A stretch of 64,000 bases of DNA from an uncultured Nitrososphaerales archaeon (GTDB lineage Archaea; Thermoproteota; Nitrososphaeria; Nitrososphaerales; Nitrososphaeraceae): NCBI GenBank assembly GCA_963713605.1, contig CAVQMO010000010.1:672001-736000 (forward strand). Direction: 5' to 3'. Position numbers and translations under genes: made by a program. The notes under the pieces are model-generated. The model was not told the DNA's origin. It searched no databases and saw only the letters and a list, made by a program, of their open reading frames with translations. Positions 1-50,882 of the stretch are shown here, piece after piece (the first letter of the stretch is position 1; every line of letters starts with the position of its first letter).

Positions 1-740
1 TCCAATATGTCATAGCCAGCAATCGCTTGCAATAGCGCCGCCGTATCCCATGCAGTTCGTGCAATTGGCCCAACATGGTCGATCGATGGGGCCAACGGCA
101 TCACTCCATATTTGCTGACTCTCCCGTATGTGGGTTTTAAACCGAAAAGCCCACATAATGAGGAAGGAACTCGGATAGAACCACTGGTATCAGTTCCTAG
201 AGAGCCTACCGCCATCCCTGCGCTTACAGCAACTGCTGAACCACCACTGGAACCCCCTGACATTCTACTAGGATCCCATGGGTTCCTTGATGAGCCATAA
301 TGGGGATTTATGTTGGTAATTCCGCAAGCGAATTCATGAGTATTGTTCGTGCCCACTATAATTGCCCCAGCTTCCTTGAGTCTTTTCACTACAGTAGCAT
401 CATAGTCAGGCACAAAGTCTGAAAGTATCCTTGAGCCACTGGTACTTCTTACGCCCCTAACGTAAATTAGATCCTTCAAACTCACAGGGATTCCGTGCAA
501 TGGACCCAAGTATTTACCATCACGTATATCCACCTCCGCCTTTTTCGCTTCCTTTCTGGCAGAATCTCCTGTCACAGTTATGTATGCATGAACCTCTTCG
601 TTTAGGTCATTGATCCTCTCAAGTGTTTCTTCAACCAGATCGACCGGTGACAAAGACTTGGAAGAAATGAGCTTGGAGAGCTCATGAATACTGGATCCTA
701 CAGTTTTTGTACTTGTAAATTCCCGCACTAATCTATTCAT
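1..740 (-). CDS. Amidase-signature family enzyme (GatA/AtzE-like), truncated by window edge
   Basis: Manual minus-strand translation from ATG at 740: MNRLVREF...LHGIPVSLKDLI...NPWDPSRMSGGSSGGSAVAV...LGTDTSGSIRVPSSLCGLFGLKPTYGRVS. Lys-cisSer-Ser signature is present. Not in the ORF track because it runs off the edge. Confidence 0.92.
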   Translation of the reverse strand, partial: MNRLVREFTSTKTVGSSIHELSKLISSKSLSPVDLVEETLERINDLNEEVHAYITVTGDSARKEAKKAEVDIRDGKYLGPLHGIPVSLKDLIYVRGVRSTSGSRILSDFVPDYDATVVKRLKEAGAIIVGTNNTHEFACGITNINPHYGSSRNPWDPSRMSGGSSGGSAVAVSAGMAVGSLGTDTSGSIRVPSSLCGLFGLKPTYGRVSKYGVMPLAPSIDHVGPIARTAWDTAALLQAIAGYDIL

Positions 741-1131
741 TCTCCTGGTTGTCACTGGTGGCAGGAGTAACAGATTTTTCCATCATGATGTTGCAGCCTT
801 TTGACTCTCTTCCATGCCTCACTGTAACTTCGTGCAATGTTAGTTACTAATGTGTCGACTTAATATCCTTATTATATCATTTTGAAAAATCGTTACATAT
901 ATCAATAGAAGCAGCATTGTGGATATATGCAAACCATGAACATTGCTAACCAATTTTCATATTATTTACAACATCTAGGTACGCAACAATAAGGATGTGG
1001 ACAGATATTGTGGTTCGCTGTTAATTAGCAAGCTTACATTTAGCAAATCACCCGAGGTTACGCCTCACTTACTGGTGAAAGTTTAATATATATTTAAAAA
1101 TAAAATCTTATGTTATCAACCCTGTCGCTGT

Positions 1132-1686
1132 ATGAAATCAATATTGAAGCCCAGAAAAAGACGTTCAAAGGGCAATCAAGATAGTTTTTCAGGCCAGTCC
1201 TTGGTTTCGATCGTTGCACCATCAATTGAATTGTTCAACATAATTCATGAGGCGTGCTCGGTTTTAGAAAACTTTGGTATCCCATACGAGACTACCATTG
1301 TTGCCGCTCACAGATCACCTATCAGGGCAATCAAATATGCAAGTAATCTTGAAGTTAGGGGGATAGAAGTTGTCCTCGCTTGCGGAACCGGATCAGCACA
1401 TCTCCCTGGAATGATAGCTTCGTTTACCAACCTTCCTGTAATTGGAATACCTTTGGCACATGCTTCATCCCTATTGGGCGGTACGGATTCTTTGCTTTCT
1501 ATGATTCAGATGCCTCAAGGGGTGCCAGTTGCCACAGTAGGTTTAGGTTCCGCGTACAATGCTGCTCTTCTAGCCTGTCAGATTCTGAGTCTTAAATATC
1601 ATTTTTTAAGGGAAAGGCTTCAATTGCACAAGCAAAAGATGGAGGAGAAGGTAGAATCTGATCAAAGCTACTTAAAAGTTAGTTAA
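1132..1686 (+). CDS. purE: PurE (N5-CAIR mutase/AIR carboxylase) family paralogue with divergent N-terminal loop
   Basis: AAHRSP, AHLPGMIAS, PVIGIP and GGTDSLLSMIQMPQGVPVATV are present. The canonical MGSxSD loop is replaced by APSIEL. Confidence 0.85.
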   Translation: MKSILKPRKRRSKGNQDSFSGQSLVSIVAPSIELFNIIHEACSVLENFGIPYETTIVAAHRSPIRAIKYASNLEVRGIEVVLACGTGSAHLPGMIASFTNLPVIGIPLAHASSLLGGTDSLLSMIQMPQGVPVATVGLGSAYNAALLACQILSLKYHFLRERLQLHKQKMEEKVESDQSYLKVS

Positions 1687-1712
1687 CCATTTAAGATTGG
1701 AAGGCAATCGCT

Positions 1713-2676
1713 ATGAGAATCGCTAGAGTAGCAAAAGAAAATTTAGAGTCCAAGGAATCAGCAATGGCCGAAGAGATGGATGATAATAGAGCTGAGTCCT
1801 AGAGTAACGGCTATGTTACCTGACCCCCATTCTGTTACTTACGCGATTGTCAACAGAAATGGAGATGCAATCATAGCAGACGAAATTGAGTCTCAAACTA
1901 ATATTCAAATTCCTCCTACTTTAGAAGAATTCATCTTTGAAGGATATTCAGATCGAGTAGGAAAGGTTCTTGACGGTTTGAACCTTACTCACAATATCTT
2001 CAGTTTTCGTTTGCTCCCGCCAATAACTAGATCATTTAAAGTAATTTGTTTGGCATTTAATTACCAAGACCAAGACACTTGGTTACGTTTCGGAAAGTTT
2101 CCTCCAAAGGACCCTGTGATATATATGAAGGCCCGAACCAGTTTGACTGGGGCATTCGAAGATATAATCTGTCCCTCGTTTGTAAAGCAGCTTGATTATG
2201 AAGGAGAGTTAGCTTTAGTGATTGATAAGAAGTGCAGAGACGTAGAAATGAATAAGGCATTAGAATATGTAGGCGGATATTTCGTATTAAATGACATTTC
2301 AGCTAGAGATGTACAATTCATTGATAAACAATATAGTCGAGCCAAAAGCTTTGATTCATTTGGCCCATGTGGGCCATGGATAGTCACTCGCGATGAGATT
2401 CCTGATCCAAATGATTTACAATTGACCACAAAAGTGAACGAAGAAGTTAGACAGTATTCTTCTACTTCTAAGCTCGTTCTAAAAATTGAGAAAATAGTAA
2501 ATAGTCTAAGTAGTGTAATGACGCTGGAAGCAGGAGATATAATATCAACAGGAACTCCTAGCGGAACGGCTTTATCGAAGTCGTCACACCTTAAATATTT
2601 ACAACATGGAGACATTGTAGAAGTTGAGGTTGAGGGTATAGGCAAAATAAGAAATAAGGTGAAATTTGTTAACTAA
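1713..2676 (+). CDS. Fumarylacetoacetate hydrolase (FAH) family protein; probable frameshift near the 5' end
   Basis: ORF 1780-2676 has DYEGELALVI, NDISARD, RAKSFDSFGPCGP and GDIISTGTPSG. A typical MRIARV N-terminus starts at 1713 in another frame. Confidence 0.9.
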
Positions 2677-2784
2677 ATAACCTGTTGGGTTTGTGTGGGG
2701 TAACCCGAGATGAAAAATAAATCTTGGCCATTACCCTGAACTCAAGAACGGATCACCCTTTAGTAGCAGTAACAGCAGCCGATT

Positions 2785-3720
2785 CTATCTTTCTCCTCTC
2801 TTGTAGGGAGTTGCCAATGCAGCGGGAGCTACACTCTTCTTGTACATAACTGCCAGGATGGCGATTGGGAGTAAGTAAGGTAGCATGAGCAAAAACTGAA
2901 ATGGAATAGTCGTTCCTATTGACTGCAGCCCCAATGCAATAGCATTGACCATTCCGTAAACGAAAGCACCTAATACTATCCAAAAAGGTCTCCATCTGCC
3001 GAAGATTACAGCTGCAAGGGCAATCCATCCTTGTCCAGCGGCAATGCCTTCAGAAAAGGACCCAGTAGTTACCAAGGCGATATAGGCGCCTCCCAAACCT
3101 GCAAACGCCCCCCCGATGATTACCGACATGTAGCGAATCCTGTTTACGTTTACACCCAGCGTATCGGCCTGCTTTGGGTTCTCTCCCACCGTTCTTATCT
3201 TTAGACCAATGTTTGTCTTGAAGAGAAAAATATGAGTCAAAGGAATTAGCAAAAATGCAAGATAGATCATTGCGTCATGATGAAAAATGATAGGTCCCAA
3301 AACTGGAATCGAAGTCAAAAATGGGATGTCCACAAGAGGAATAGTAGGTACTGTGGGTGCCACCGTGACTACGCCAAAAGTCAATCGGTATAGCAGTGCA
3401 GCTAGGCCGACCCCTAAAAGCCAGATGGCTAAACCAGCAACCAACTGGTTTGTGCGTAAGCTTACACTTAGAAAAGCCATAAGAGCTGCCATGACCATCG
3501 GCCCAGAAACAGCAAATAATATTCCAATGATTATATTCCCTGTGACGAACGTTCCAATAAAGCCGGCAAATGCTCCGATTAACATCATTCCTTCAACCCC
3601 TAGATTGAGAACACCTGAACGTTCAGCTATATTTTCACCTAGCGCAGCAAAGAGCGAGGGTGTACTCATACGAATACCTGACGCAACTATTCCGATAATA
3701 AAATCAATCATTTCTACCAA
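2785..3720 (-). CDS. Nucleoside/purine ABC transporter permease (NupC/RnsD-like)
   Basis: AALGENIAERSGVLNLGVEGMML, VGENPKQADTLGVNV, GQGWIALAAVIFGRW; multiple TM helices. Confidence 0.92.
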   Translation of the reverse strand: MVEMIDFIIGIVASGIRMSTPSLFAALGENIAERSGVLNLGVEGMMLIGAFAGFIGTFVTGNIIIGILFAVSGPMVMAALMAFLSVSLRTNQLVAGLAIWLLGVGLAALLYRLTFGVVTVAPTVPTIPLVDIPFLTSIPVLGPIIFHHDAMIYLAFLLIPLTHIFLFKTNIGLKIRTVGENPKQADTLGVNVNRIRYMSVIIGGAFAGLGGAYIALVTTGSFSEGIAAGQGWIALAAVIFGRWRPFWIVLGAFVYGMVNAIALGLQSIGTTIPFQFLLMLPYLLPIAILAVMYKKSVAPAALATPYKRGER

Positions 3721-3729
3721 TTTGTCAAT

Positions 3730-4848
3730 TCACTCCATATTCCCCCTCTCCGCAGGCGCACCAATCTGCTTCCCATGGTTCTCTAATTTGTCTTCAACGA
3801 CTCTCTTGATTCTTTTTGGAAGGTGAATTCGGGTAAATACTTCTCCGATTAGAACGAAAACCAAAACGAGTGCCTGCAATGTTTGAGCAAAAGCAACTGG
3901 TATGCCTAGCGTTCTATACATAGATTCAGATCCTGCGAGCAAGACCGCAAAGAAGAAAGCGACAAGACAAACTCCCAAGGCATTTTCTCTCCCCAAAAGT
4001 GCAATGATCACAGCGATAAATCCATAACCAGGAGAGATACCCTCGATGAGTCGATGTTGGACGCCGGCTAGAAGCACTGCTCCAGTTAGTCCCGCCAGCC
4101 CTCCACTTATAGCCATGGTTATCAGGATACTTTTCGTTATGTTCATACCTGCATAACGTGCGGCTGAAATGTTCATGCCCACACTTTTCAATTCAAATCC
4201 AATCTTACTTTTCCATAGAAAATGGACAAAAATGGCGGCCAGAGCCGCTATGATTAGTCCTGCATGCAATCTAGTATGCTCTACCAAAATAGGCAGTTCA
4301 GACTCCGGAAAGATATCGGGACTGTAGGGCAAAAACCCTGGCGCTTTGATCGGCCCATGTAGAAGGTAAGAAATAAAGAGAAGTGCTACGAAATTGAGAA
4401 GAACGGTTACAATTATTTCACTTACACCCAATTTGACTTTGAGTACTGCTGGCACAAGACTGAACATTGCTCCAAATGCAATGCCCGCAATGAGGACGAT
4501 AATAACCGACACTACAGGAATCATACCCACCACAGCAATCCCAACCAGCAACCCTCCCAGAGCTCCCATGTAGAGTTGACCTTCAGCGCCGATATTCCAT
4601 AATTTGCACTTAAATGCGACAGCTACCGCAAGACCTGTAATGAGCAGCGATATAGTCTTTACAAGTGTATCTGCAATTGCACGCGTAGATCCAAGTGATC
4701 CCTTAATCAGTAAAGCATAGGCTTCCAGGGGATCCACACCTGCCGCATAAAGTATGATTCCTCCGACCAAAAAAGCCAGCCCCCCTGACAGGAACGGGAC
4801 GATGTGTTTAAAACTGAGTCTCTTTCCGAGTATGAGAGTTGTGGTCAA
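3730..4848 (-). CDS. Nucleoside/purine ABC transporter permease (NupB/RnsC-like)
   Basis: LWNIGAEGQLYMG, GFELKSVGMNISAARYAGM, GYGFIAVIIALLG. Confidence 0.92.
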   Translation of the reverse strand: MTTTLILGKRLSFKHIVPFLSGGLAFLVGGIILYAAGVDPLEAYALLIKGSLGSTRAIADTLVKTISLLITGLAVAVAFKCKLWNIGAEGQLYMGALGGLLVGIAVVGMIPVVSVIIVLIAGIAFGAMFSLVPAVLKVKLGVSEIIVTVLLNFVALLFISYLLHGPIKAPGFLPYSPDIFPESELPILVEHTRLHAGLIIAALAAIFVHFLWKSKIGFELKSVGMNISAARYAGMNITKSILITMAISGGLAGLTGAVLLAGVQHRLIEGISPGYGFIAVIIALLGRENALGVCLVAFFFAVLLAGSESMYRTLGIPVAFAQTLQALVLVFVLIGEVFTRIHLPKRIKRVVEDKLENHGKQIGAPAERGNME

Positions 4849-4896
4849 TTTTGCAGATCACAATCTCCTATATTTCCATAATCTTTAGGCATCATT

Positions 4897-6582
4897 TCAA
4901 GTACCAGCCTCCACTACATAGCCCCCCATTAACGGGCCTATTATATCGACGTCTGCTGTTGTCCTGTCAAATACCCCCATTATCCTACCGGCATATATCA
5001 CTGCTATCCTATCGCTGAGTAGTAGAATTTCATCTAAATCTAAGGACAACAGTAAAATTCCTACTCCAGAATCTCTTTGTTTAAAAAGTTGTTTGTGAAC
5101 ATATTCGGCAGCACCCACATCCAATCCTCGTGTAGGGTTATGAGCAATAAGCAGTTTATGTTCCTTTGACAATTCTCTTCCAAGTACGATTTTTTGTAAG
5201 TTACCACCCGATAAATAGCGCACTTGAATATCTAGACTTGGAGTTCTCACATCAAATTTTGTGACGATCTCTTCTGCAAATCTTTTCATTTCGTGTTTAT
5301 TTAAGAATATCTTGCCAGAGTACGGTCTGCTATACCACCGGTCCAAAATTAGGTTTTCAGCGATACTGTACTCTAGAATAAGACCAGTGTTGAGCCGATC
5401 TTCAGGTATGTAAGCGAGACCCCATTCTCTGATCTGCCTCGGTGACATTCCTTTTATGTCGCGTCCGTCAATGACTACCTGTCCACTCTGAATCTTCCTC
5501 AATCCCGAAATAATCTCTGCCAATTCGCTCTGACCATTGCCATCGACGCCTGCAATTCCCAATATCTCACCTTTTGGTACTGTTAATGACAGGTCCTTAA
5601 GCGCTTGAACCCCAGAGTTGTTCAAAGCAAACACATTTTTAAGTTCCAGCACCGTGGCAGGTTCAGCTGCGGGTTTTGCTTTAGACGATTTCTGAATTCC
5701 CACATGGATCTCTTCATGCCGCTGGCCTACACTTTGAGTGAGTGACCTTCCTATCATCAATTTTGCAAGTTCTGTCTCGGTTGTCTGTTCAGTAAATACC
5801 GTACCAACAACTTTTCCACCTCTAAGAACCGTTACACGTGTGCTTGCTTCCATGACTTCATTTAGCTTGTGCGTGATGAATATTATCGAAAGTCCGGCCT
5901 TTACCATAGCAGATAACGTCGAAAACAATGCCTTTTCTTCAACGGGGGTAAGCATCGAAGTAGGCTCATCGAGGATTAGAATATCAATATCCCTGTAGAG
6001 TGCTTTTATTATTTCTACCCGTTGTTGCTCGCCTACAGACAGGTCACCCACGATAGCTTTTGGGTCAATCTTAAGACCGTATTTCCTAGATAATTCCAAG
6101 ATCTTTCTTTCTGCTTCCGCCGTATTCAAGAAAATAGATCTTCCAGGTGACTTTAGCCCGACAATAATGTTCTCTGTAACTGTATGACTAGGTGTCAATA
6201 AGAAATGCTGATGAACCATAGCTATCCCAAGGCCTATGGCATGAAGAGGAGATTTTATGTCAACCTTTTTTCCCTTCACAAAAATTTCTCCCGCTTCTGG
6301 TTTGTAGAGTCCATACAGTACACTCATCAAAGTTGTCTTTCCAGCACCGTTTTCTCCAAGAAGACCATGAATTTCGCCTCTAAAAAGATCGAAGTCCACA
6401 TCGTTATTTGCTATAACCTCATTAAATCTGCACGTTATGCCGTTCATAGAAAGTATTGGTTGGTCATCTTGCGTTCTGGCCGGCGCTGATTGTGAGGGTT
6501 TCGGATTCGGAAGGGGGGAAGGAGCGAAAGCAGAGTGGTCAACATTTGAGTTTGTAAGAGGAGGAGAACCGGCATCAGACAT
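4897..6582 (-). CDS. ABC transporter ATP-binding protein with duplicated ATPase domains (NupA/RnsA-like)
   Basis: Walker A GENGAGKTT, LSVGEQQRVEI, ILDEPT; second domain GVDGNGQSEL, LSGGNLQK, PTRGLDVGA. Confidence 0.95.
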   Translation of the reverse strand: MSDAGSPPLTNSNVDHSAFAPSPLPNPKPSQSAPARTQDDQPILSMNGITCRFNEVIANNDVDFDLFRGEIHGLLGENGAGKTTLMSVLYGLYKPEAGEIFVKGKKVDIKSPLHAIGLGIAMVHQHFLLTPSHTVTENIIVGLKSPGRSIFLNTAEAERKILELSRKYGLKIDPKAIVGDLSVGEQQRVEIIKALYRDIDILILDEPTSMLTPVEEKALFSTLSAMVKAGLSIIFITHKLNEVMEASTRVTVLRGGKVVGTVFTEQTTETELAKLMIGRSLTQSVGQRHEEIHVGIQKSSKAKPAAEPATVLELKNVFALNNSGVQALKDLSLTVPKGEILGIAGVDGNGQSELAEIISGLRKIQSGQVVIDGRDIKGMSPRQIREWGLAYIPEDRLNTGLILEYSIAENLILDRWYSRPYSGKIFLNKHEMKRFAEEIVTKFDVRTPSLDIQVRYLSGGNLQKIVLGRELSKEHKLLIAHNPTRGLDVGAAEYVHKQLFKQRDSGVGILLLSLDLDEILLLSDRIAVIYAGRIMGVFDRTTADVDIIGPLMGGYVVEAGT

Positions 6583-6762
6583 ATTTAGCTAAATACCCCC
6601 TATTGCACTTGTATTGGAGGGTACAATGAAACAAAAAATAATCTTCCCAGTATTGACATCTTTCCTACTTTTTATCTCATGGCTGGAGAATTGACAATGA
6701 AGATAATCTACAAGGTTGTCATTTCCAATAATTCTAATTTGATCCTTTTTATGGAACAAAAA

Positions 6763-7822
6763 TTAGGACGACGCTTCTGTCCGCTCCGGAACTACGATCT
6801 TGCCACTTATTATATCTTGGACTATTTGGTTAAGCTTCTGTTTCACATCAGCGGGAACCTTGCTATCGAGATTATGGAATGGTGCAATGAATACGATACC
6901 ATCTCCGGAGGCGCCTTTTGCAGTCTCTAATCCCGGCTTATAAAGCTGACCACTAAAGTTACCATTCTGGACCATTTTTATTGCTCCGTCGAAGGCCTTT
7001 TCCATATCAAGTAACGAAAGAGGTCAGCACTGTATCCGGCGCAAGATTATGTTGATCTGCAACTACTCCTAGAGCATAAATGCCCTTTTCTTTTGCTGCT
7101 TGAATCACTCCCTGTCCTGACAGGTCGGCAACGTGAAACAGGAAATCAGCACCATTATTTATTAACGAGACTCCGGCTTCCTTTCCTCGAGCAGGATCAG
7201 TGAAAGTATCGATATATTGTCCTATTACCTTGATGTCAGGATTGATGGACCTAGCTCCCTGTTTATATCCCTCAAATATATTTATTATGTTAGGATATGC
7301 CTGACCACCTACAAAGCCAATTGTGCCTGTCTTTGACATCATTGCCGCCAATGCTCCAAGGACATATGATCCCTCTTGCTGCATTGGAAAGACAGATGCT
7401 ACATTACTACCGTTGGTTAGGCCTGTAAAGACTACAAACTTTGTATCAGGATAGTCGGCACCAACTCTCAGAGCTGGATCACCCCACTCAAACCCATGAG
7501 CGATAATAAGATTATTTCCTTGATCTGCAAAATCTCTCAAGGTTGGCTCTATATCAGGAATCGCAACATTCTCGACAGTGGTCAACTCCAAACCGTATTT
7601 TTCCTTTAAGGCCTGCGAAGCGTTATATGCTGTGGCACCCCATCCGCCATCGCTGAATAATGCATCAGTTAAAAGTGCCACCTTCAATGGTGTTCCTTCC
7701 TCTTGTGCCCAGACTCGTTCCAACGTCGGGTATGAAAAAGTAGACCCAGTGATCAAGACTACAGCAACCATAATTCCGGCTATAGCGCCCGTTAGTTTCC
7801 TTACATTAGATCTTTTGGACAT
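6763..7822 (-). CDS. BMP (PnrA/TmpC-like) purine/nucleoside-binding protein; split by a frameshift near 7006
   Basis: ORFs 7007-7822 and 6763-7005 abut. N-terminal signal/TM anchor, DGGWGATAY, IIAHGFEW, GTIGFVGG, GVIQAAKEKG. Confidence 0.9.
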
Positions 7823-7881
7823 ACTCCAACATTCATAGCGATTGCAGATCGTAATATAGTTTGTCTGATTTAAGCTAAAGA

Positions 7882-7899
7882 TTTATGATATATCATAAA
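7882..7899. promoter_or_regulatory. Perfect 18-bp palindrome TTTATGATA|TATCATAAA, putative operator before the ABC operon
   Basis: Seen in sequence about 60 bp upstream of the BMP start. Shares the format TTATGA-N4-TCATAA with the site at 8088-8103. Confidence 0.6.
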
Positions 7900-8087
7900 A
7901 AAGAAGGTTTACATTGAACTAGTGCCAGATCGAATGTCCGTGTTTTTTATGCTTTGGCACACAGTTTAGATATGTAAAATCTAATCTTTCTAAATACCTA
8001 TCTGACGAAGGCAAACTGAACCTCGCCTTCTAGGAAACCACCTTTCAATTATTACAATCTCGATCGCTGTAAATGAAAATCTACCGC

Positions 8088-8103
8088 TTATGATTATTCA
8101 TAA
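8088..8103. promoter_or_regulatory. Second TTATGA-N4-TCATAA palindrome, putative operator before fdrA
   Basis: TTATGA-TTAT-TCATAA about 105 bp upstream of the fdrA start. Confidence 0.55.
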
Positions 8104-8208
8104 CATCTACAATATTATATAATCAAATGATGACTGTATTTATGCGCATTTTTAGCTGAAAGCGCAACTATGCTTAAATACTATAGCTTTGAACGCTGAA
8201 CTACGAAA

Positions 8209-9933
8209 GTGAGCAAGTCCATACCTTCGGTGGATACTCATCAAAATGTTCTAGTTAAGCACAACTATTATAGAGATTCACTTGAACTTCTTAGATTGTC
8301 CGATGAGATTAAGCGATATCCTGGAATAATCGAAGCCTCTCTAGTAATGGGTACTAAAACTAACAAAGAAATCTTGATTAAATTAGGCTTCCCCACCCAA
8401 CATATTGCGAAGGCAGAAAGCTCAGATATGATAATTGCTTTGAGAGCTAAGGATGCCGCCTTGTTACTTGCAACAATCCCAAAAATCGAAGCCATTCTAC
8501 GTGGGACTGGCGGGGAGCAAATCCTAGAAATGGACCATTCCTCGACTAATGAGAGCCGTGATCTTGAGTCGGTGCTTAGATCTGTTAAGGACATTAATAT
8601 TGCATTAATTTCTGTTCCTGGCGAACATGTTAGAAGCTTGGCATTCAAATTGATCGATGAAGGAATTCACCAACAGATTTTCAGCGATCATGTGAGCATA
8701 GATGATGAGCTTGAGATAAAAAGACATGCACTGAAGAATCGTGTATTGATCTTGGGACCAGGTGCTGGGACGTCAATTATCAGCGGAAAAGGAATTGGGT
8801 TTTCAAATGCTGTTGCCACGGGCCCTGTCGGGATTGTAGCAGCAGCGGGTACAGGATTACAAGAGGTTTCCACATTACTAGATCGTTGTGGAATAGGTGT
8901 TAGGCATGGGTTGGGAGTTGGAGGAAACGATCCTAAAGAAAAGATCGGTGGTTTGATGATGTCAGAAGCGTTAAAGATGCTGGATGAATGTGAAGATATT
9001 GATGTGATAAATATTGTGTCAAAGCCTCCGGCAACAAGTGTCCAGCAGAGAATACTTAATCATGCAATTAAGCATGGAAAGAAAAAGTACGTGATGACCT
9101 TTATCGGGCAGCAGCGCATCTATCGAAAATACTAAAGTGAAAAAAATGAGCAGCAGCACCAAGAGGCGTACCAGACAATCAAACAAAATCATTATCGCCA
9201 ACACTCTTACCTCATCGGTCTTTGCAACAGCAAAACTTATCGCTAGCGTGAACAAGTCTGAATCGTCAATGGATCCTATTCATGTCAAGATTGAGGATCT
9301 CAAACGAATTGTAATGGCAGAACGGAAGCGCCTTAGCAATGAACAAAAGTACCTAAGGGCATTGTACACCGGTGGCACTTTTGCATATGAAACACAGGTT
9401 ATTCTTAATGGCCTCGCTATAAGGCCACTCTATTCTAACGCTCCCCTATCCAAGACGCAACTTCTACAAGACGCAATGAAAAGTTTCAAGAATTCAGTTA
9501 TCGATCTTGGTGAGGAAGAGTTTACTAAAGGCAGGGCACATCCAATGATAGACCCCACAATAAGAAAACTCAGAATAAGTGAAGAAGCATCGTATGACGA
9601 CGTTGCGGTAATAGTCCTCGATTTTGTACTTGGTTATGGATCAAATCCTGATCCAGTTGGCTCGGCTATTGATGAAATTAGAAATGCAAAGCTGCCTGGC
9701 CGCGAAAGCCAAGAGACACCTTAGCGTTGTAGCTCATGTCTGTGGGACGCGAAGAGACCCTCAAGGTTATGACCGATCTCTGACAAGATTGAAGGATGCA
9801 GGTGTTCTGGTTCTTCCTACCAATTCCTTCGTTGCAATAGCTGGCTGCAGGTATAGTGGCCAAAGGGCCTATCGACTTCCGAGAGGCATATTCACGGTTT
9901 ATTGGAGAAACCCATCAAGGTGAATTGACATAA
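8209..9933 (+). CDS. fdrA: FdrA/YahF family acyl-CoA synthetase-like protein (AllF homologue); several frameshifts
   Basis: YYRDSLELL, ALISVPGEHV, IFSDHVS, LGPGAGTSII, GIVAAAGTGLQEV, GVGGND, ALYTGGTFAYE, DLGEEEFTKGRAHPMIDP, LDFVLGYGS and HVCGTRRDPQG are spread over ORFs 8209-9135, 9137-9724 and 9624-9923. Confidence 0.9.
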
Positions 9934-10106
9934 TGTCCAACACACAAAAGAAATTATTAGATTCAGATTTAACAGTAATTAATATAGGTGTGAATATCTT
10001 TTATGATGCACTAAAGGTTCAAAATGTTAAAGTCATTCAAGTAGATTGGAAACCAGGTCCTGTGCTTGATAAGCTTAGTGAAGAGATTCTATCAAAAATC
10101 ATGTAA
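9933..10106 (+). CDS. Small FdrA-associated protein (57 aa), corresponding to the C-terminal module of bacterial FdrA
   Basis: Manual translation MSNTQKKLLDSDLTVINIGVNIFYDALKVQNVKVIQVDWKPGPVLDKLSEEILSKIM has the VINIG..F...L..Q...V.QVDW.P motif. Below the ORF-track size cutoff. Confidence 0.8.
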   Translation: MSNTQKKLLDSDLTVINIGVNIFYDALKVQNVKVIQVDWKPGPVLDKLSEEILSKIM

Positions 10107-10206
10107 TCTTATTCGAAGGCAAGAATGAATGACAAAACGTTAAGTGCTATACAATTTGATGTAAAGGAAGAGACTGACATGGCAATCAAATACATCGAGT
10201 GGAGAT

Positions 10207-11160
10207 ATGTCCACAACAGTGGTAAGCGATGACATGGTAGCCTTCAAGTGCGAGTGCATAGGAGTGTTGTACAAGGATATGCGCAAGTTTACAGCCAAGA
10301 AGTATCTAGTTGGTAAGGTCATAAGCTCGTTTCCCTCTAGTCTCAACATCAAGACTTCAAGAAACGAACTGTTGGTCATAAGTCTAAACAAGATACACTC
10401 TGCTATCACAGTAAATCTGAAGCCTCAATTTAGCAACTCCAATTTCGCGGGACTTATCGATTATGGAGATGATGTAGTCAAATTCCTGAATTCGGTCTCC
10501 ATTGGCGAAAGAATGGAATTGCTTACGGCGAAGAGTATTATCTTTAAAAACTGTTTTGTGGGGCCCACATCTGCTGGATTGTACAAAATTAGCGACGCTG
10601 CAGAAAGAATTTTGAGTTCCCTCATGGAATTAAGGAGGAATGGATGTCTGCTGGAACCGGAGATCACAAATCAAGGCCTTTTTCATCAATTCGTTGCCGA
10701 AACTTCAGAGAATAACATTAGGAACAAGGATAACACTAGATTTGTTAGGACGTTATCCCATTCATTGATGAAAATGTGCGGAAGGGGCCCCGGATTCACA
10801 CCGTCTGGAGATGATTTCATCTGCGGTTTTAGTTCCTTGTTTAATTGGCTATCGCAAAGTCTAAAATGTCCTCCTATATCGCTGCCAATGAAGAGAGTCA
10901 GCGATTTGACCACTTGGAACAGCTTCAAATTCATTGAATATTATCAGAAATTGATCGTTGATGAACAAATCCAAGGTTTGATCAATTCGATTGGGGAAGG
11001 GCGTATTGACCGGTTCATATCATTGTTATCTACGCTAAGCTGCAGAGGACACACATCCGGCATAGATATCAGTACAGGCCTATCTACAGCTTTGTTCACT
11101 TTTTGCGATCGGTTCCTTGGGACAGATCTCTTACCCAAAGTTCAAAGCTTTTCGGAGTAG
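10207..11160 (+). CDS. DUF2877 family protein (YlbF/YahE; AllH homologue)
   Basis: Family motifs GRGPGFTPSGDDFICG and GHTSGID; lies between fdrA and carbamate kinase. Confidence 0.85.
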   Translation: MSTTVVSDDMVAFKCECIGVLYKDMRKFTAKKYLVGKVISSFPSSLNIKTSRNELLVISLNKIHSAITVNLKPQFSNSNFAGLIDYGDDVVKFLNSVSIGERMELLTAKSIIFKNCFVGPTSAGLYKISDAAERILSSLMELRRNGCLLEPEITNQGLFHQFVAETSENNIRNKDNTRFVRTLSHSLMKMCGRGPGFTPSGDDFICGFSSLFNWLSQSLKCPPISLPMKRVSDLTTWNSFKFIEYYQKLIVDEQIQGLINSIGEGRIDRFISLLSTLSCRGHTSGIDISTGLSTALFTFCDRFLGTDLLPKVQSFSE

Positions 11161-11452
11161 AGAAATCGACAACAAGACCAATATCTGTAACGATGTCAAA
11201 AAGAGCGTGAGAGAATCGAAAATTTATCTTCATTCGAGAATGAAGTGAGTAAGGTGTCAATGTTTAGGAATTTGCTTTATCATCCACTGAAATCGAATCA
11301 GAGATATTAGATCGAATTCAAGAAGTGGTTGCAAGTTACATATCTTATTTTAGATAATTTATATATCAATGTATGCTAGTTTTATGATAAATGCATATTC
11401 TTAGATGTTCTGGGCATTAAATTTAAATAAGATATTCCTAGTTTAGTAACTC

Positions 11453-12427
11453 TTGAGTAATTCAAGATCAGATCTAATCGTTTTTGCTATTGGTGGGAAT
11501 GCTCTTGTGAGATCTGGTGAGAGAGGAACATTTGAAGAACAGTATCAAAACGTACAGATTGCTGTGAAGCAGATCGTTGAATTTATGAAGAGAGATAAAT
11601 GCAGAAACAGAATAGTTCTGACTCATGGTAACGGACCACAGGTGGGAGCAACCCTTGTAAGGCATAGTTTAGCTGACGAATACTGCCCTGCACTGCCATT
11701 ATACGTATGTACCGCAGAAACGCAGGGGTTTATAGGCTATATTATTGAACAAGCATTGCAAGATGAGCTAGACTGTTCAAAAATAAATAAAAATGTTACG
11801 ACCCTCCTTACTAGAGTAGTTGTTGATTCAAATGATAATGCATTTCTCAACCCAACTAAGCCTATCGGAGAAACATTTAGCGACGAAATGACCGAAGTCC
11901 TCTTGAAAAATGGAATAGTACATCTTGAAAAACGAAAGGTAGGCTCTGACGGCACAAAGTTCAAACTCGTAGTTCCATCACCAAAGCCTATCACCATTGT
12001 AAATTATGAAGCAATTCGTTCTCTAGTAGATGCTGGATTTATTGTCGTCGCATGCGGGGGCGGAGGAATTCCAGTGATGAAGGAGAATCGGAATACCTTA
12101 GGAGTCGATGCTGTGATAGACAAAGACCTTGCCAGTGAAAGACTAGCAACTTCAATAGGTGCCTCAACTTTGGTGTTACTAACCAACGTGGATGGAATAT
12201 ATAGGAACTATGGAAAGAAGAATCAAGAGCTTATAGGTACGGTCAGTATAGGAATGAATCTCGAACAGGAATTAGGGTCGCAGGACCTAGAAAGTGGTAG
12301 CATTGGTCCCAAAGTGCAAGCGGCCATCTCATTTATAAGAAACGGAGGAAAGGAGGCAATAGTCTGCTCTCTTCAACACCTTTCTGATGCATTAGCCGGT
12401 ATATCTGGGACACATTTCTTTAGATGA
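11453..12427 (+). CDS. arcC: Carbamate kinase
   Basis: AIGGNAL, THGNGPQVG, AETQGFIGY, NPTKPIG, VVPSPKP, CGGGGIPV, AVIDKDLAS, GSIGPKV. Confidence 0.96.
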   Translation: MSNSRSDLIVFAIGGNALVRSGERGTFEEQYQNVQIAVKQIVEFMKRDKCRNRIVLTHGNGPQVGATLVRHSLADEYCPALPLYVCTAETQGFIGYIIEQALQDELDCSKINKNVTTLLTRVVVDSNDNAFLNPTKPIGETFSDEMTEVLLKNGIVHLEKRKVGSDGTKFKLVVPSPKPITIVNYEAIRSLVDAGFIVVACGGGGIPVMKENRNTLGVDAVIDKDLASERLATSIGASTLVLLTNVDGIYRNYGKKNQELIGTVSIGMNLEQELGSQDLESGSIGPKVQAAISFIRNGGKEAIVCSLQHLSDALAGISGTHFFR

Positions 12428-12451
12428 CCTTTACTAGAGGGAATATTCACA

Positions 12452-13709
12452 ATGAACAATAAAACTAGAATCAAAGAGCGTATAGAAGAAGCTAACAGTA
12501 AGGCCCTCGAACGGATGCGTTTATCCAGGCCCACTCTTGTCGATATTAAATATGCAAGGGATATTCTGCCTCAAATGAAGAAGAATTCAATTTTTCATGC
12601 AGGTCCTCCCATTGATTGGGAAAGGATGTGTGGCCCATTGCGCGGAGCAATCGTTGGGACTATGATCTTTGAGGGATTAGCGACGACTTGGAATGATGCT
12701 GTAAAATTGATAAGGCAGGGCGACATCGAATTCTCCTCTAATCACGATCATGATGCAGTAGGTCCTATGGCAGGGGTAATCTCGCCATCGTTGCCTATTC
12801 TTGTTGTTAAAGATCAAAGTAATGGCAAGACCTGTTTTGCCCGATTCGTAGAAAACAGAGTGCAATTTGGACTTTTCGATAAGGAGTCAGTTGATGTTCT
12901 TAGATTTTGGTCTGAAAAACTATCCCCCTTATTGGGCAAAGCTATTCGTAAGAGTAGGGGAATCGATCTTAAACCGATAATGGCTAAAGCATTGCACATG
13001 GGAGACGAACTGCATAATAGGCCAGCCTGCAGGCACGTTACTATTTGAAAGTACCATATTACCTCATCTATTGGTAGTCTGTAGTCTAGATGAAGTAGGA
13101 GAGATTACAAGATATCTTTCAGAAAATGATATTTTTTTCCTGTGCGTGAGTATGGCTGCATGCAAAGCAATCACAAAAGCCGCTCATGGCATCCAATATA
13201 GTACGTTAGTAACAGTTATGGCAAGAAATGGAACTAACTTTGGAATAAAGGTGAGTGGTTTAGGGAATGACTGGTTTGTCGGAGAGGCAAACATGATTAA
13301 GGGATTGTATTTTCCGGGTTATGGCCCTGAAGATGCTAATCCTGATATTGGTGATAGTGCCATTACAGAGACTGCTGGTATTGGAGCATTCGCTCTGGCA
13401 GGATCTCCTGCAATATTGGCGCTCATTGGTGGATCTGCCGAAGATGCTATAAAGTACACATATGAGATGCGCAAAATTACGAATTCACTTAATGAAACAT
13501 TTACCTTGCCAATCATTAATTTTCAAGGTACTGCAACTGGTATTGATATCCGAAAAGTGATGAGAACCGGGATAACTCCTGTTATCGATACGGCTATAGC
13601 ACATAAACAAGCAGGAGGGGGCTACATTGGAGCAGGTCTAGTACGGGCACCTTTGGAGCCCTTCAAAAATGCTTTACACGCTTATGGTAAAAGATATAAA
13701 TTGGTTTGA
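12452..13709 (+). CDS. DUF1116 family protein (YlbE/YahG; AllG homologue); frameshift near 13030
   Basis: HAGPPIDWERMCGPLRGA, AVGPMAGVISPS and ALHMGDELHNR in the first ORF; MARNGTNFGI, NPDIGDSAITET, GIDIRKV and IAHKQAG in the second. Confidence 0.92.
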
Positions 13710-14754: not shown

Positions 14755-16502
14755 GTGCTTAAAAGAAATTCTGTACAATCGTATATTCTAATAGCTATAG
14801 CACTTGGAGCAATAACACTCCACATAGTGCCAACGACTCAGGTATTCGCAAATTCTTCTGATTCAACAGAAGCAGCCGCAGCTGCCGCAGCAGCAGGTGA
14901 AGCAGCTGCAGCAGCTGCAGCGCAGCTGGTGGATCTGCAGCGCCGCGAGCAGCAGCTGGTGATGCAACGCAGCAGCAGCGGCAGCAGCTTCAAAGTATGG
15001 CTCGGCAGCCTCAGCAGCGGCAGCTGGACATGCAGCGCAGCAGCGGCAGCTGCGAGCAGGTGGATCAGCCAGCAGCGCAGCAGCAGCAGGTAGCGCAGCA
15101 GCCGCAGCAGCAGCAGGCGGATCAGCCGCAGCAGCAGCAGCGAGCAGGCAGTGCAGCAGCAGCAGCAGCGGCCGCAGGCAAATACGGCTCAGCCGCAGCC
15201 GCAGCAGCCGGCAGCGAGCAAGCGGTAGCGGTGCTTCAGCAGCCGCAGCGACGAGCAGCCGGCAAGGGAGCAGGCAGCAGCAGTAGGAGCAGCAGCGGGC
15301 TATTCCGCAGCTGCTGCTGCCGCCGCATCCTCTTCGGGACACCACGGATTAGCAGCAGGCAGCAGCTGGAGCCGCGTCAGGTGGAGGAGCAGCAGCAGCC
15401 GGAGCAGCAGCAGGCGGATCAGCCGGAGCGAGCAGCAGGAGCAGGCAGTGCGAGCAGCGAGCAGCAGCAGCTTCAGGAGGAGGTTCTGCAGCAGCAGGAG
15501 CAGCAGCAGGTAAGGGAGCAGCCAGCAGCGAGCAGCCACGCGGCAGGCGGATCAGCCGGCAGCAGGCAGCAGCAGCCGGTGGTGGAGCAGGAGCAGCAGC
15601 TCGCATCAGGTGGTTCTGCGGCAGCAGCGCAGCAGCCGGTCGGTGGAGCAGCAGGCAGCAGCGCAGCTTCAAGCGGAAATGGTGGTGCAGCGCAGCCCGC
15701 AGCCGCCTCAGGTGGCGACAATGGCTACAAGAACTATGGCAAAGACAAAGACAGTTCTTCAGCAGCTGCAGCTGCAGCAGCATCCGAAGATTCAGGACGC
15801 AGCAGCCGCAGCAGCAGGTGATGCAGCAGCAGCAGCAGCATCAGCAGCAGGTGGTTCTGCAGCAGCCGCAGCCGCGAGCAGGCGATGGAGCTGCAGCCGG
15901 GGCAGCGCGAGCCGGCGGAAACGGCGGATCTGCAGCGCAGCGCAGCCGCCTCAGGTGGCGACAATGGCTACAAGAACTATGGCAAAGACAAAGACAGTTC
16001 TTCAGCAGCCAGCCGCAGCGCAGCAGGAGCATCCGAGGATTCAGCAGCCGCAGCAGCCGGAGCATCCGAAGATTCAGCAGCGCACAGCGGCAGCAGCAGG
16101 CGCATCCGAAGATTCAGCAGCGCAGCAGCAGCAGCATCCGAAGATTCAGCAGCCGCAGCCGCAGCAGCAGGTGATGCAGGAGCAGCAGCAGCAGCTGCAG
16201 CAGGAGCCAGCGACGATCATGGTAAGAAGAGGTCTGGAGATGACAGCTCTTCAGCAACCGCAGCAGCGCAGCAGGAGATGACGCAGCAGCAGCAGCCGCA
16301 GCAGCTAGTGATGACAAAGATGAGAAGAAGAAGGGTGACCACAATGACGGAAAAGGATCTAAGGATGAATCTAGCAACAGATCTAATGATGGCGGTGAAG
16401 CGAATGATGGCGATAGCGAAGAAAGCAGTGGCGGCGAGGGGAGAAAGCAGTGGCGTCGAAGAAAGCAGTAGTAGTAGCAGCAGCAACAGCGACGACGAAT
16501 AA
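14755..16502 (+). CDS. Secreted low-complexity poly-Ala/Gly/Ser repeat protein with acidic Ser-rich tail; many apparent indels
   Basis: Signal peptide (MLKRNSVQSYILIAIALGAITLHIVPTTQVFA-N), then GCN-codon tracts giving (A)6-8-GGS-like units. Ends ...SSSSSSSNSDDE with stop at 16502. TATA (TTATATA) at 14727-14733. Confidence 0.75.
14868..16305 (+). repeat. GC-rich degenerate (GCA/GCC) trinucleotide repeat region containing a 68-bp exact direct repeat (15699-15766 = 15942-16009)
   Basis: Seen directly. The duplicated block encodes AASGGDNGYKNYGKDKDSSSA; several GCATCCGAAGATTCAG (ASEDS) units follow. Confidence 0.9.
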
Positions 16503-16540: not shown

Positions 16541-16809
16541 ACCTAATTATTATCCACTTTTTAAAACCGTTGGTTAATTGAGACGATTACTGAGTGACTG
16601 GCCTTTCTAACAAACTATTCAACATCGAATTAAGCTGAGATAGCAATTCATAATCTCCTGTTCAAGGAGAATATAACTGGTACGTGTATGAAATCTTATA
16701 CAAGTTCAATAATGCATGTTATTAGAGCTGATTCTGGAGAACGCATACTTGAAGAACCATACGTTTATGAACAACTCAACAATCAAATCCTATTCGGGGA
16801 ATAATATTC

Positions 16810-17977
16810 ATGAAGTTAGTTAAATGTAACACCTTGTTTGACGGGACCGAAGAAAAAAATGATTGCTACGTAGGATTTGAAGGTGATCAGATAAAATATG
16901 TCGGAAAGGATAAAACCCCAAAGCTAGAAGGGACCACTGAAAATAGCAATGAAATTATCGCAGAAGGAAACACGTATGCAATTACTCCTGGATTCGTTGA
17001 TGCACACAGTCACATAGGATTAGTCAGGTCTGGCGAACCGGATAGAGAAGAAGAGGCAAATGAGCGTTTCAACCCTATTTATCCGTTAGTAAATGCCTTA
17101 CACAGTATCTATATGGACGATCAATCCTTCACTGAATCAGTTGAAGGTGGAGTACTTTATTCGACTGTCTTACCAGGAAGTGGAAACATTATTGGCGGAA
17201 AAGCGGTTCTAATACGCAACTTCGCCAAAGACATTGGTGAAGCTTACATGACTGACGTTGGAATAAAGATGGCGTTAGGGTATAATCCCCGTAGCACAAC
17301 AGAATGGAAGGGCGATAGACCATCAACACGAATGGGAGCAATCGCGATGCTCCGCGAAAATTTGTTAAAGGCAAGAAAAATGCAACATCTGCTACAGGTG
17401 GAAAAAAAGGTTACTGACGAAGTAGAACCACTAACTGAGGTGTTCATGGATATACTTTCAAATAAATACAAACTGATGGTGCACCTTCACAAAGAAGATG
17501 ACGCAATGGTACTGATGCAACTAGTTAAGGAGTTTGGAATAAAGGCGATTGCAAATCATTGCGCTGATGTTCACAGGGAAGAAGTTTTCGCGGCATTGAA
17601 AGCCGACTTCAATACCTGTAGTTTATGGACCGCTGGACTCCTTTCCATACAAAGTAGAACTCAAACATGAAAGTTGGAGGAATGTAGAAAAACTAGTAGC
17701 GTCAAAGGCGAAATTCTCATTTATGAGCGACCACCCTGTAATTCTGCAAAGAAATCTTTTCTATACTTTAAGACATCTTCTCAGATTCGGTATGTCAAAA
17801 GCCAATGCTATATCTAAAATTAGTAAAGAAGCGGCCGAAATTATCGAAGTAAACGATATCGGTCAGGTAAAGGCAGGGTATAAGGCCTCATTTGTGGTTT
17901 GGAATGGTGATCCGTTCTCTTTGTCAAGTTACCCTGTGTTAGTAATCGCGGAAGGAACAACTGTGTACCAAGAATAA
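16810..17977 (+). CDS. Metal-dependent amidohydrolase (imidazolonepropionase-like superfamily); frameshift near 17605
   Basis: TPGFVDAHSHIG, LPGSGNIIGG, KMALGYNP, STRMG, VHLH, NHC; C-terminal part SDHPV...IGQVKAGYKASFVVWNGDP. Confidence 0.88.
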
Positions 17978-18076
17978 ATTACAGTTTCGCTGGTCAAAAT
18001 GACTTTTACCAAGATTTCTAAGCGGGCAAATCAATATGGTTAATGGATATCGGATGGATCATGTTGATAGAATGCG

Positions 18077-19213
18077 TTATTTAATAGGTTGAAGAGGGGC
18101 ATTAAGATTCAAATATTGCCCGTCCCTATATACGGTGAACATAATATTTTCCCCAATAGTTTTATTTTCCTGAACATAGGAGAGCAACCCTTCAATATCT
18201 ACAATACTATTACCATCCAAGGCTGTTATTACATCGCCACTCTGTCGTTGTCCATATTTGTCTGTGGTTGCAGCATCTATTCCAGCGATATCTGCAGTAC
18301 CTCCACGTACAACGGTGTCTACTAGAACTCCTTCCAAATCATCTGGGATATCATTAAACTGCTTTGCTAGATCTACAGTAAGGGTAGAGCCTACTATGCC
18401 AATTGCAGGATGTATGTATAATCCGTCTTGAATCAATCCAGTGGCAACTCTGCTGATTGTATTCGACGGAATAGCCACGCTCAATCCAGGAAATTGTGTG
18501 CCCGACGCAGGGGCAGTGGGATTTAACCTACCATATATCATTCCCACTACTTCCCCGTCCATGTTTATCAGAGGACCACCAGAATTCCCTGGGTTTACAG
18601 CTACATCAGTTTCAATTGTATTGGGCACTGAATAGCCGAGAAAAGGGAAATATAACAAATAGTCGGTTTGACCAATAATTCCTGCAGTCATGGCTATTTT
18701 TGAGGCAAAAGGATAGCCTATAGTTACAACTCGATCACCAATCTTAAGCAAAGAGGAATTACCAAGCGTTACTGGTCCAGAGGATCGAACACTCTTGGAA
18801 ACAATCGTATTATTGTTATCTATTATCTCTAACACCGCAGTATCTGTAAATGCGTCTCTTCCTACTACGTTGGCGTCATACCTGTCACCATCTTTGAAAA
18901 CGACGCTAACGTTATTCGCTCCAGCCAAAACGTGATTGGCAGTGACAATATGCCCTACGTCATCATAAATGAATCCCGCACCCACTTCGGTTGTATTCTG
19001 GGCTTGAGGATTTATGCTGAATAATGGGGGGGTTATGCTCACAATCTGCACTATTGAATCGCTCGCATTATCGAATATGGTTGAAAGGTCATCTGCCGTG
19101 GGTTCAACTGCGAACCCAGGGCTTGAACTAACGATTGTACCAACTGAAAATATGTAAAGCGAAATAAGGACCATGACTGCAAATCTTAATAGCATAAGCT
19201 TTGCAATATTCAT
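18077..19213 (-). CDS. Secreted HtrA/DegP-like trypsin serine protease with PDZ domain
   Basis: Signal/TM segment; catalytic triad in TANHV, DTAVL and NPGNSGGPL; C-terminal PDZ (GDVITALDG). Confidence 0.93.
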   Translation of the reverse strand: MNIAKLMLLRFAVMVLISLYIFSVGTIVSSSPGFAVEPTADDLSTIFDNASDSIVQIVSITPPLFSINPQAQNTTEVGAGFIYDDVGHIVTANHVLAGANNVSVVFKDGDRYDANVVGRDAFTDTAVLEIIDNNNTIVSKSVRSSGPVTLGNSSLLKIGDRVVTIGYPFASKIAMTAGIIGQTDYLLYFPFLGYSVPNTIETDVAVNPGNSGGPLINMDGEVVGMIYGRLNPTAPASGTQFPGLSVAIPSNTISRVATGLIQDGLYIHPAIGIVGSTLTVDLAKQFNDIPDDLEGVLVDTVVRGGTADIAGIDAATTDKYGQRQSGDVITALDGNSIVDIEGLLSYVQENKTIGENIMFTVYRDGQYLNLNAPLQPIK

Positions 19214-38879: not shown

Positions 38880-39934
38880 ATGAGTTCTACTGTGAGTATG
38901 CCAAGTAAGATCTTTGGCACAGTGCTATCCCATGGATTAAGAGGACGCATGTTGTCTAAGAATGAGCTTCATACACTAGCCGAATCAAGGGATATAGATG
39001 AACTCGTTACAAGAATGAAGAACACCGTATATCTTGATGCACTAGCTAAGTTACCGAAGCCTTATACAGCAGAGAAAGCGGAGAGCGCACTTCGCGAGTA
39101 CCTCGTCAATGTCCATGCCAAGTTGGTAAATATCTCGGGGGGCTCAGGGATACTGTACACGTGTACTTTACAAAGTATATCACTTGGAATCTTAAATTGA
39201 TTTTAAAAGGAAAGGCCTTGGGCAAGTCATACGAGGAGCTCTTACCAAAAATTAATCTCCGAGCGGAAGAGTTAGTAGGGAGGCGAGATTTGATAGTAAA
39301 AGCATTAGTTGCCCAAGACTTTGACGAAGCAGTCTCTGTCCTGTCAGGTAGTGAATTCTTTGAACAGGCATCCAAAGCAGCTGCAGCTTATAAGGAGAAA
39401 AGGGACCTGAGGCTATTTGATATCTACCTAGACCATGTCTTCTACAAGACGCTCGATAAAGCCATGAAATCTGAGACACAGGATCCAGACATAAAGAGGG
39501 TGGTCTCAGTTGATATAGATTCGTATAACGTTTTAGCGGTGCTTAGAGGTAAGTATTGGAATTTGAGCCCTGCAGACATAAATGATTTAATTGTGACTAC
39601 TACTCCAAAGGTCACCAGAGAGACCCTACAAAAGCTCATGAACGCCGAAAAGATATCAGAGGCAGCTTCAGAGTTAGGGGATACAGTTTATAGGGAAATC
39701 ATTCCTCAGAACGTATCCGACGACATAGATATCATTATGCAATTAGAGGCAGGCTTTGAAGGGATAGGTTTGAAACGTGTTTTTAGTGCCTTTAGATCGG
39801 TTTTCAGCGTTGCCATCATGCTTGCAGCATTAAAGCTCATAATGATCGAAATAAGGAATCTTTCAGCGATTATTTCAGGTGTAGAGCAGAAAGTGTCCCA
39901 TGATCTTAATAGTCTCTCGACTTGTGACTCCTGA
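38880..39934 (+). CDS. atpC: A/V-type ATP synthase subunit C (d); frameshift near 39160
   Basis: LRGRMLS...LAESRDIDEL...TVY, WNLKLILKGK, LDHVFY, DIDSYNVLAVLRGK, EIRNLSAIISG. Confidence 0.88.
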
Positions 39935-50872: not shown

Positions 50873-50882
50873 ACTTTTAATC

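Follow-up and report, generated by a model that had tools for sequence, protein, structure and literature searches.

A biuH- and allFGH-type gene cluster in a Nitrososphaeraceae archaeon with a probable role in nitrogen scavenging

In this work, we have analysed a stretch of 64,000 nucleotides (the window, G000:C10:672001-736000) from an uncultured Nitrososphaeraceae archaeon, and the gene cluster at its left end. The assembly (GCA_963713605.1, here G000) comprises 4.09 Mb in 15 contigs, is 87.5% complete and carries frameshifts, and every search of this genome reported below is to be read on that basis. To the right of a GatA-like amidase gene lie a paralogue of purE, a gene of the FAH family, a four-gene BMP-type ATP-binding cassette (ABC) importer and, in divergent orientation, a trio of AllFGH/YahFGE-like subunit genes with a carbamate kinase gene (Table 1). 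All the genes named in the initial annotation are present and in place, with Pfam support, and its view that the purE of the cluster is a paralogue is borne out by a canonical, higher-scoring copy on contig C1. A biuH-type biuret hydrolase gene just outside the window belongs to the same cluster. The amoB, amoX and amoA genes, which lie outside the cluster about 49 kb away on the same contig, mark the host as an ammonia oxidizer; Pfam confirms amoB and amoA, and amoX is probable by its position.

Table 1. Genes of the cluster and other features (window coordinates unless a contig or locus is given)
Feature	Coordinates	Strand	Support and remarks
biuH-type biuret hydrolase, intact, 290 aa	C10:670114-670986 (1014-1886 bases left of position 1)	-	best PDB match 6AZO
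GatA-like amidase-signature enzyme	1-755 (starts at 755, continues left to C10:671275)	-	PF01425
PurE paralogue (AIRC)	1132-1686	+	PF00731
FAH-family hydrolase	1780-2676	+	PF01557
NupC-type ABC permease	2785-3720	-	PF02653 (BPD_transp_2)
NupB-type ABC permease	3730-4848	-	PF02653 (BPD_transp_2)
NupA-type double-domain ABC ATPase	4897-6582	-	PF00005 x2
BMP/PnrA-family ligand-binding protein	6763-7822	-	PF02608; split near 7012
AllF/YahF (FdrA)-like subunit	8209-9923	+	PF02629/PF00549; PDB 3DMY; split near 9105, 9695, 9843
Small open reading frame, 57 aa, piece of AllF/AllG pair	9933-10106	+	E. coli YahG/AllF similarity; FdrA model
AllH/YahE (DUF2877)-like subunit, intact	10207-11160	+	PF11392
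Carbamate kinase (AA_kinase), intact, 324 aa	11453-12427	+	PDB 1E19; PRK12352 cut-off passed
AllG/YahG (DUF1116)-like subunit	12452-13709	+	PF06545 in both halves; split near 13025
amoB	62411-62965	-	Pfam PF04744/PF12942 support for amo genes
Probable amoX, 125-aa open reading frame	between amoB and amoA		no Pfam match; placed by amoX position
amoA	63617 to window end (64000)	+	Pfam PF04744/PF12942 support for amo genes
Kinase-BMP fusions in other genomes	L030:15811-17721; L035:11674-13590; L037:8297-10207; L152:7937-9850

The cluster is not new, being another instance of one described in 2025. In ammonia-oxidizing archaea (AOA), Rasmussen et al. 2025 (PMC12625717) reported biuH, a gatA-like amidase, purE, FAH, bmpA-nupABC, codB and allFGHK, with Nitrososphaera viennensis as a cultured carrier and a BMP-type importer beside bacterial nitrifier clusters too. 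Here biuH, the gatA-like amidase, purE, FAH, bmpA-nupABC and allFGHK stand together in an amo-bearing archaeon. The gene set, the host group, the proposed link to ammonia oxidation and the ATP from AllK (according to the supplement of that paper, AllK makes ammonia and ATP) are the same, with no difference in kind. The novelty claimed in the initial annotation therefore falls, since the cluster, the argument about ammonia and the AllK-derived ATP are all in print; the AOA cluster has been characterized there genomically, not biochemically. The text of that paper treats the trio as oxalurate-specific and does not discuss YahG, kinase fusions or an altered PurE loop. Our analyses add that the trio is no nearer to the Escherichia coli AllFG than to YahFG, that biuH occurs in 19 of 20 genomes with allG, that no oxalurate-forming enzymes were found in this incomplete genome, and that the PurE paralogue has lost its GS.SD loop.

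The enzyme with the clearest identity is BiuH. Its best PDB match is BiuH itself (6AZO, E 4e-71), ahead of TrtA (6XIX, E 2e-44). With residue numbers from PMC5806882 and PMC7948467 mapped via the PDB alignment, the catalytic triad is kept as D85/K196/C229 (Asp36-Lys142-Cys175 in the reference), as are the binding residues F90, K199 and Q269 (Phe41, Lys145, Gln215). Five of the six positions that discriminate BiuH from TrtA are of the BiuH type (Y96, Y102, D227, T254, V272); the sixth, A201, is TrtA-type, and a swap at the equivalent position is reported to be harmless to TrtA (PMC5806882, PMC7948467). Conversion of biuret to allophanate and NH3 by this protein is thus strongly supported by its residues. 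These catalytic and binding residues are those of the BiuH proteins of Rhizobium leguminosarum and Herbaspirillum and of the bacterial triuret pathway trtA-trtB-biuH-atzF (PMC5806882, PMC7948467). In contrast to that pathway, the AOA BiuH has an N-terminal extension of about 55 aa, an AllFGH-like trio is attached, and a profile search of G000 gave no trtB/atzH family match and no allophanate hydrolase over cut-off. The amidase keeps the Lys, GGSSGGS and Ser motifs. Of GatA, AtzE and AtzF in the PDB, GatA is the nearest to its orthologue in genome G235, and AtzE too ranks above AtzF. It is a candidate allophanate hydrolase, as proposed in PMC12625717, and may work like AtzF.

All three subunit families of the E. 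coli oxamic transcarbamylase AllFGH (FdrA, DUF1116 and DUF2877) are present, together with a counterpart of its catabolic carbamate kinase AllK (PMC11326118, PMC9843812). Compared with the E. coli system, AOA AllF and AllG are 30-41% identical, the AllF C-terminus is encoded apart as a 57-aa product, and the cluster lacks the allB/allC/allD context; the AOA host has urease, whereas the enterics discussed in PMC11326118 are urease-negative. The E. coli yahEFGI products, annotated as uncharacterized, outscore their All paralogues in BLAST for F, G, the kinase and the small open reading frame (ORF): AOA AllG gives 347 bits with YahG and 299 with AllG, AOA AllF 281 with YahF and 240 with AllF, and the kinase 206 with YahI and 181 with AllK. 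AOA AllH matches both E. coli paralogues weakly. In a quick maximum-likelihood tree of AllG, covering 43 of 107 rows (15 near-identical Bradyrhizobium loci had been dropped earlier), a branch with 95% support in the Shimodaira-Hasegawa-like approximate likelihood-ratio test (SH-aLRT) separates the AOA and family-f4 sequences from both E. coli paralogues, so that YahG too groups outside the AOA clade. Orthology to E. coli AllG over the other paralogues is not borne out, as BLAST favours YahG and the tree of 43 of the 107 rows leaves both E. coli proteins outside the AOA and f4 side. The search for a donor that the initial annotation had called for, a contig scan with AOA AllG read with the same partial tree, recovered a distinct AOA AllG group joined by two f4 sequences and named no bacterial donor. 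As a separate observation, Bradyrhizobium, Pandoraea and related loci (L183, L196, L214, L223, L185, L180) carry at least two allG-like genes per cluster, accompanied by genes for a BMP importer and for a cysteine hydrolase.

The small partner noticed in the initial annotation does exist as an ORF, and is not a new subunit. It is 47% identical to residues 3-38 of E. coli YahG (36 aa) and 33% identical to AllF 510-539, and it matches positions 503-551 of the FdrA model; a PDB sequence search with it gave no match. Since it is homologous to the YahG N-terminus and the AllF C-terminus, we regard it as a split-off piece of the known complex. The carbamate kinase has 1E19 as its best PDB match (E 2e-68), conserves the family motifs and passes the PRK12352 cut-off (302 over 266 bits), while staying below that of arcC (336 against 358). 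Its production of ATP, NH3 and CO2 is well supported by homology.

The BMP protein matches 7X0R, 9Q1U and AtzT (6PI5) in the PDB. AtzT, the guanine/hydroxyatrazine-binding BMP of Pseudomonas sp. ADP (PMC6834077), belongs to the same family, and its aromatic sandwich is kept here (Y45 to W, W194 to F/W), whereas its hydrogen-bonding residues are changed (S97 to G, E165 to N), and the guanine specificity of AtzT cannot be assumed here. The reading of the system as a purine/nucleoside importer (PnrA/NupABC) is a family-level match, with a pocket that differs from that of AtzT. We had considered that BMP might be confined to allFGH genomes, and this was wrong: 59 of 120 genomes of the family have BMP homologues, and it is the permease that tracks allG. 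Stand-alone paralogues, 50-67% identical and with the same pocket motifs, occur at loci L249-L256 and L258-L260 (for example L256:7585-12008 and L260:7417-11827). In 11 of the 12 non-cluster loci examined, a complete histidine kinase gene bearing a Cache-like sensor domain lies next to that of the BMP, and the twelfth ends at a contig edge; a receiver-domain gene is sometimes present, and twice the pair lies beside glutamine synthetase. This arrangement may represent an archaeal nitrogen sensor made of a binding protein plus a kinase. A third form is found in genus g6 and in one Nitrososphaera-labelled record, where a circularly permuted BMP domain of the cluster type sits inside the carbamate kinase, giving proteins of 636-638 aa; both domains are present in 78 of the first 79 protein matches. 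The fusion looks like a ligand-gated enzyme, and a literature search found no report of one. Its AlphaFold model, with a mean predicted local distance difference test score of 58.5, was not used. The pocket motifs are common to the importer, the histidine-kinase-linked and the kinase-inserted forms.

In an alignment of 15 PurE paralogues, all keep the class I His45 and the AHLPG loops, and the N-terminal GS.SD loop is missing in the 14 that cover the region, though present in the canonical purE of G000. We take this loop to be the one that holds ribose phosphate; a literature search did not confirm this role. The paralogue may thus act on a non-nucleotide N-carboxy substrate. The FAH protein, which in relatives reads about 320 aa from an upstream start, exceeds the cut-off of no NCBIfam equivalog.

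AllG is encoded in 35 of 301 genomes of the class. Co-occurrence was counted in 117 genomes of the family (120 minus the unpublished G444, G484 and G495), of which 20 have allG, 36 biuH, 21 the ABC permease, 22 the kinase and 12 a CodB-like permease. Nineteen of the 20 allG genomes carry biuH, the exception being 59% complete, and one allG match lies below cut-off; 19 of 20 carry the ABC permease and 19 of 20 the kinase. Every one of the 21 genomes with the ABC permease has biuH. Among the 17 biuH genomes that lack allG, nine have the CodB-like permease, two the ABC permease and six neither. Near 20 biuH loci of the family, several of them ended by a contig edge, purE was found 15 times, FAH 15 times and the amidase 12 times. 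This pattern suggests two modules, with an importer-trio-kinase module riding on a biuH module. The only allG genome of family f2 (1 of 180), G281 (L033-L034), has the gene intact, amid repeated transposase-like ORFs and a fragmented permease.

We propose that the cluster is probably an accessory nitrogen-scavenging island of soil Nitrososphaeraceae, encoding a multi-step route from ureides to ammonia in two modules: module A (biuH, amidase, PurE paralogue and FAH) and module B (BMP-ABC importer, AllFGH/YahFGE-like trio and carbamate kinase). The ABC system would import a planar, nitrogen-rich ureide or heterocycle, and the trio would use phosphate to remove its terminal carbamoyl group as carbamoyl phosphate, by analogy with E. 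coli AllFGH. Carbamate kinase would then release ATP, NH3 and CO2, BiuH would turn biuret into allophanate and NH3, and the amidase may complete the route by converting allophanate into 2 NH3 and 2 CO2, as proposed in PMC12625717. The pay-off would be ammonia for ammonia monooxygenase and for assimilation, with the ATP of the kinase at best refunding the cost of import. Of the ureide-to-ammonia-plus-ATP pathway put forward in the initial annotation, an importer, AllFGH-like trio and carbamate kinase that probably free ammonia thus survive, and the net gain of ATP does not.

What does the trio act on? Like oxalurate, triuret, carboxybiuret and allophanate belong to the N-acylureas, so their phosphorolysis would supply substrates for BiuH or the amidase. 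It is quite possible, at somewhat less than an even chance, that BiuH and the trio form a single pathway in which the trio uses a polyurea (triuret to biuret and carbamoyl phosphate, or carboxybiuret to allophanate and carbamoyl phosphate). Elsewhere, allFG adjoins biuH in the family-f4 genome G425 (L244); in two Bacillota (L160, L182) its neighbours are BiuH-like genes, and it directly precedes a cyanuric acid hydrolase gene, over cut-off, in a Bathyarchaeota record (L154). Comammox clusters with allFGHK are without trtB (PMC12625717). We tentatively advance a fuller hypothesis, drawn from comparisons of sequences: the AOA trio may be a polyurea carbamoyltransferase, a second activity of the AllFGH/YahFGE family, phosphorolysing triuret or 1-carboxybiuret for BiuH and the amidase, while the loop-altered PurE would be a non-nucleotide N-carboxy decarboxylase replacing TrtB/AtzH, and the importer, the Cache-domain histidine kinase and the permuted kinase insert would all read the same BMP ligand. 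If so, up to 4 NH3 and 1 ATP would be obtained per triuret without TrtA or TrtB.

Several observations weigh against these proposals. BiuH scores 281 bits on NCBIfam NF050097, below the cut-off of 370, although this is its best model by far and AOA proteins were nonetheless classed as biuH in PMC12625717; the amidase orthologue of G465 is under all NCBIfam cut-offs (232 against 511 bits for AtzF, TIGR02713). At non-AOA loci with close allG homologues, a cysteine hydrolase is nearby in 18 of 70, mostly near-identical Bradyrhizobium, and for the two Bradyrhizobium-type hydrolases scanned (L183, L223) the RutB score is slightly higher than the BiuH score. A clearly BiuH-like score is found at only the two Bacillota loci, and many others pair allG with coenzyme A-transferases or other genes; shadow ORFs in the high-GC sequences interfered with the clustering of neighbours at the bacterial loci, so some neighbouring genes may be missed. 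Comammox carry a putative trtA beside allFGHK (PMC12625717), and with it triuret phosphorolysis would be superfluous in these organisms. The 59 family genomes (of 120) that have BMP homologues with the shared pocket motifs include many that lack biuH or allG, and the ligand is thus not necessarily a polyurea. Since related genomes have genes in common and the two modules share one island, their nesting may be a matter of linkage and not of chemistry. Finally, the literature searched, which covered few subscription papers and bioRxiv supplements, contained no report of growth or enzyme assays on the AOA proteins.

The published reading is that two routes share the importer, BiuH and the amidase acting on biuret, and a true AllFGH with AllK acting on oxalurate supplied by neighbours (PMC12625717). 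In its favour, interconversion of oxamate and oxalurate is the sole demonstrated activity of the family (PMC11326118), and the cluster encodes the full set of three subunits plus the kinase. Against it stand the higher scores of the AOA F, G and kinase on YahF, YahG and YahI, the position of both E. coli AllG-family paralogues across the supported branch of the tree, and the fact that allG is almost never seen without biuH. A profile search of G000 found no member of the ureidoglycolate dehydrogenase (AllD) family, and none of the xanthine dehydrogenase, uricase or AtzH/TrtB families; allC lay outside the search. The match to the allantoinase model is a frameshifted cyclic amidohydrolase (C1:438222-439650, L225) with 180 bits against a cut-off of 358, and a search for AtzD was empty, as was its positive control. 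The initial annotation had expected purine ring-opening enzymes to the left of the window, where the neighbour proved to be the biuret hydrolase; upstream purine enzymes were not found in G000, nor in AOA according to the text of PMC12625717. On balance we consider the two-route reading, and with it oxalurate as the substrate of the trio, less likely than not and of much the same standing as the single polyurea pathway; another N-acylurea is a slightly less likely substrate.

It could also be argued that the trio mainly feeds carbamoyl phosphate to pyrimidine and arginine synthesis, with the kinase as an overflow valve. This would spare the 2 ATP of CarAB, and the ligand-binding domain inserted in the g6 kinase could gate the enzyme. 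We consider it improbable, as G000 has carB over cut-off, the kinase of the window is without the insert, which occurs in genus g6 kinases, and the cluster shows neither pyr nor arg genes. An even less probable suggestion, made in the initial annotation, is that the cluster provides the ammonia oxidizer with ATP independently of O2. The kinase yields 1 ATP per carbamoyl group and ABC import costs about 2 ATP per transport cycle, so such a supply is unlikely; the permease accompanies allG in 19 of 20 genomes, and the substrate probably enters by this costly route. The intact kinase with its conserved motifs and the anaerobic operation of the E. coli pathway (PMC11326118) would be compatible with the idea, and the 1 ATP gained per carbamoyl phosphate is offset by import.

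There is only a very slight chance that this strain holds a pseudogene island in decay. The amidase gene, bmp, allF and allG are broken by seven single-base insertions (window positions of about -431, -250, 7012, 9105, 9695, 9843 and 13025). Compared with close relatives (81-90% nucleotide identity), each of the seven is an extra base (+1), and in these relatives the genes are whole: bmp is intact (352-357 aa) in four of four close metagenome contigs spanning the gene, allF (565-572 aa) in four of four and allG (418 aa) in three of three that cover it from end to end, and the amidase is unbroken in G465 and G499. Among the matches listed, 93 protein clusters match the AllG of locus L067 at 82-99% identity with at least 94% coverage. 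Essential genes of the same assembly are frameshifted or truncated alike, namely subunits of the A-type ATP synthase (window 38880-39934 and 47699-51347), purF with three breaks and purQ with one (C1:1024596-1029042), and so is a gene for a peptide-ABC binding protein. The seven breaks are thus most likely assembly errors, and split ORFs anywhere in G000 need caution; G499 has coding breaks of its own at other sites. A chimeric or contaminating origin of the cluster, as might be suspected from its scattered distribution (six of the 13 other genomes of the genus have allG), is hardly conceivable, because the junctions, whose possible artefactual origin the initial annotation had flagged, recur in two independent same-genus assemblies: colinearity spans window -1887 to 12827 in G465, with 83% of nucleotides identical, and -1343 to 14501 followed by 16753-18725 in G499; moreover, the GC content of 39-45% is similar to that of most of the window, and AllG groups with records labelled Nitrososphaeraceae, as its closest relatives are. 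The cluster is real and probably functional.

Two paralogous genes for low-complexity, Ala-rich and probably secreted proteins flank the cluster (window 14755-16502 and C10:665931-668040), and G465 also has the Ala-rich gene of the left flank. Recombination between the two could add or remove the island. Between the left Ala-rich gene and biuH lies a tandem Cys/Pro-rich repeat ORF with a unit of about 21 aa (C10:668428-669523), and a multicopper-protein-like ORF, which presumably resembles archaeal NirK, is found 15 kb left of the window (C10:656207-657442).

What would such a cluster mean for these archaea? Biuret and triuret are fertilizer impurities and products of urate oxidation (PMC7948467). 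If the pathway works as proposed, soil AOA would nitrify biuret or triuret, widening the range of organic nitrogen that feeds nitrification. This idea is already in print, and so the window adds one more genome to it. For the AllFGH/YahFGE family, the co-occurrence with biuH, the tree and the altered PurE loop point to polyureas, and not oxalurate alone, as substrates of the trio worth considering.

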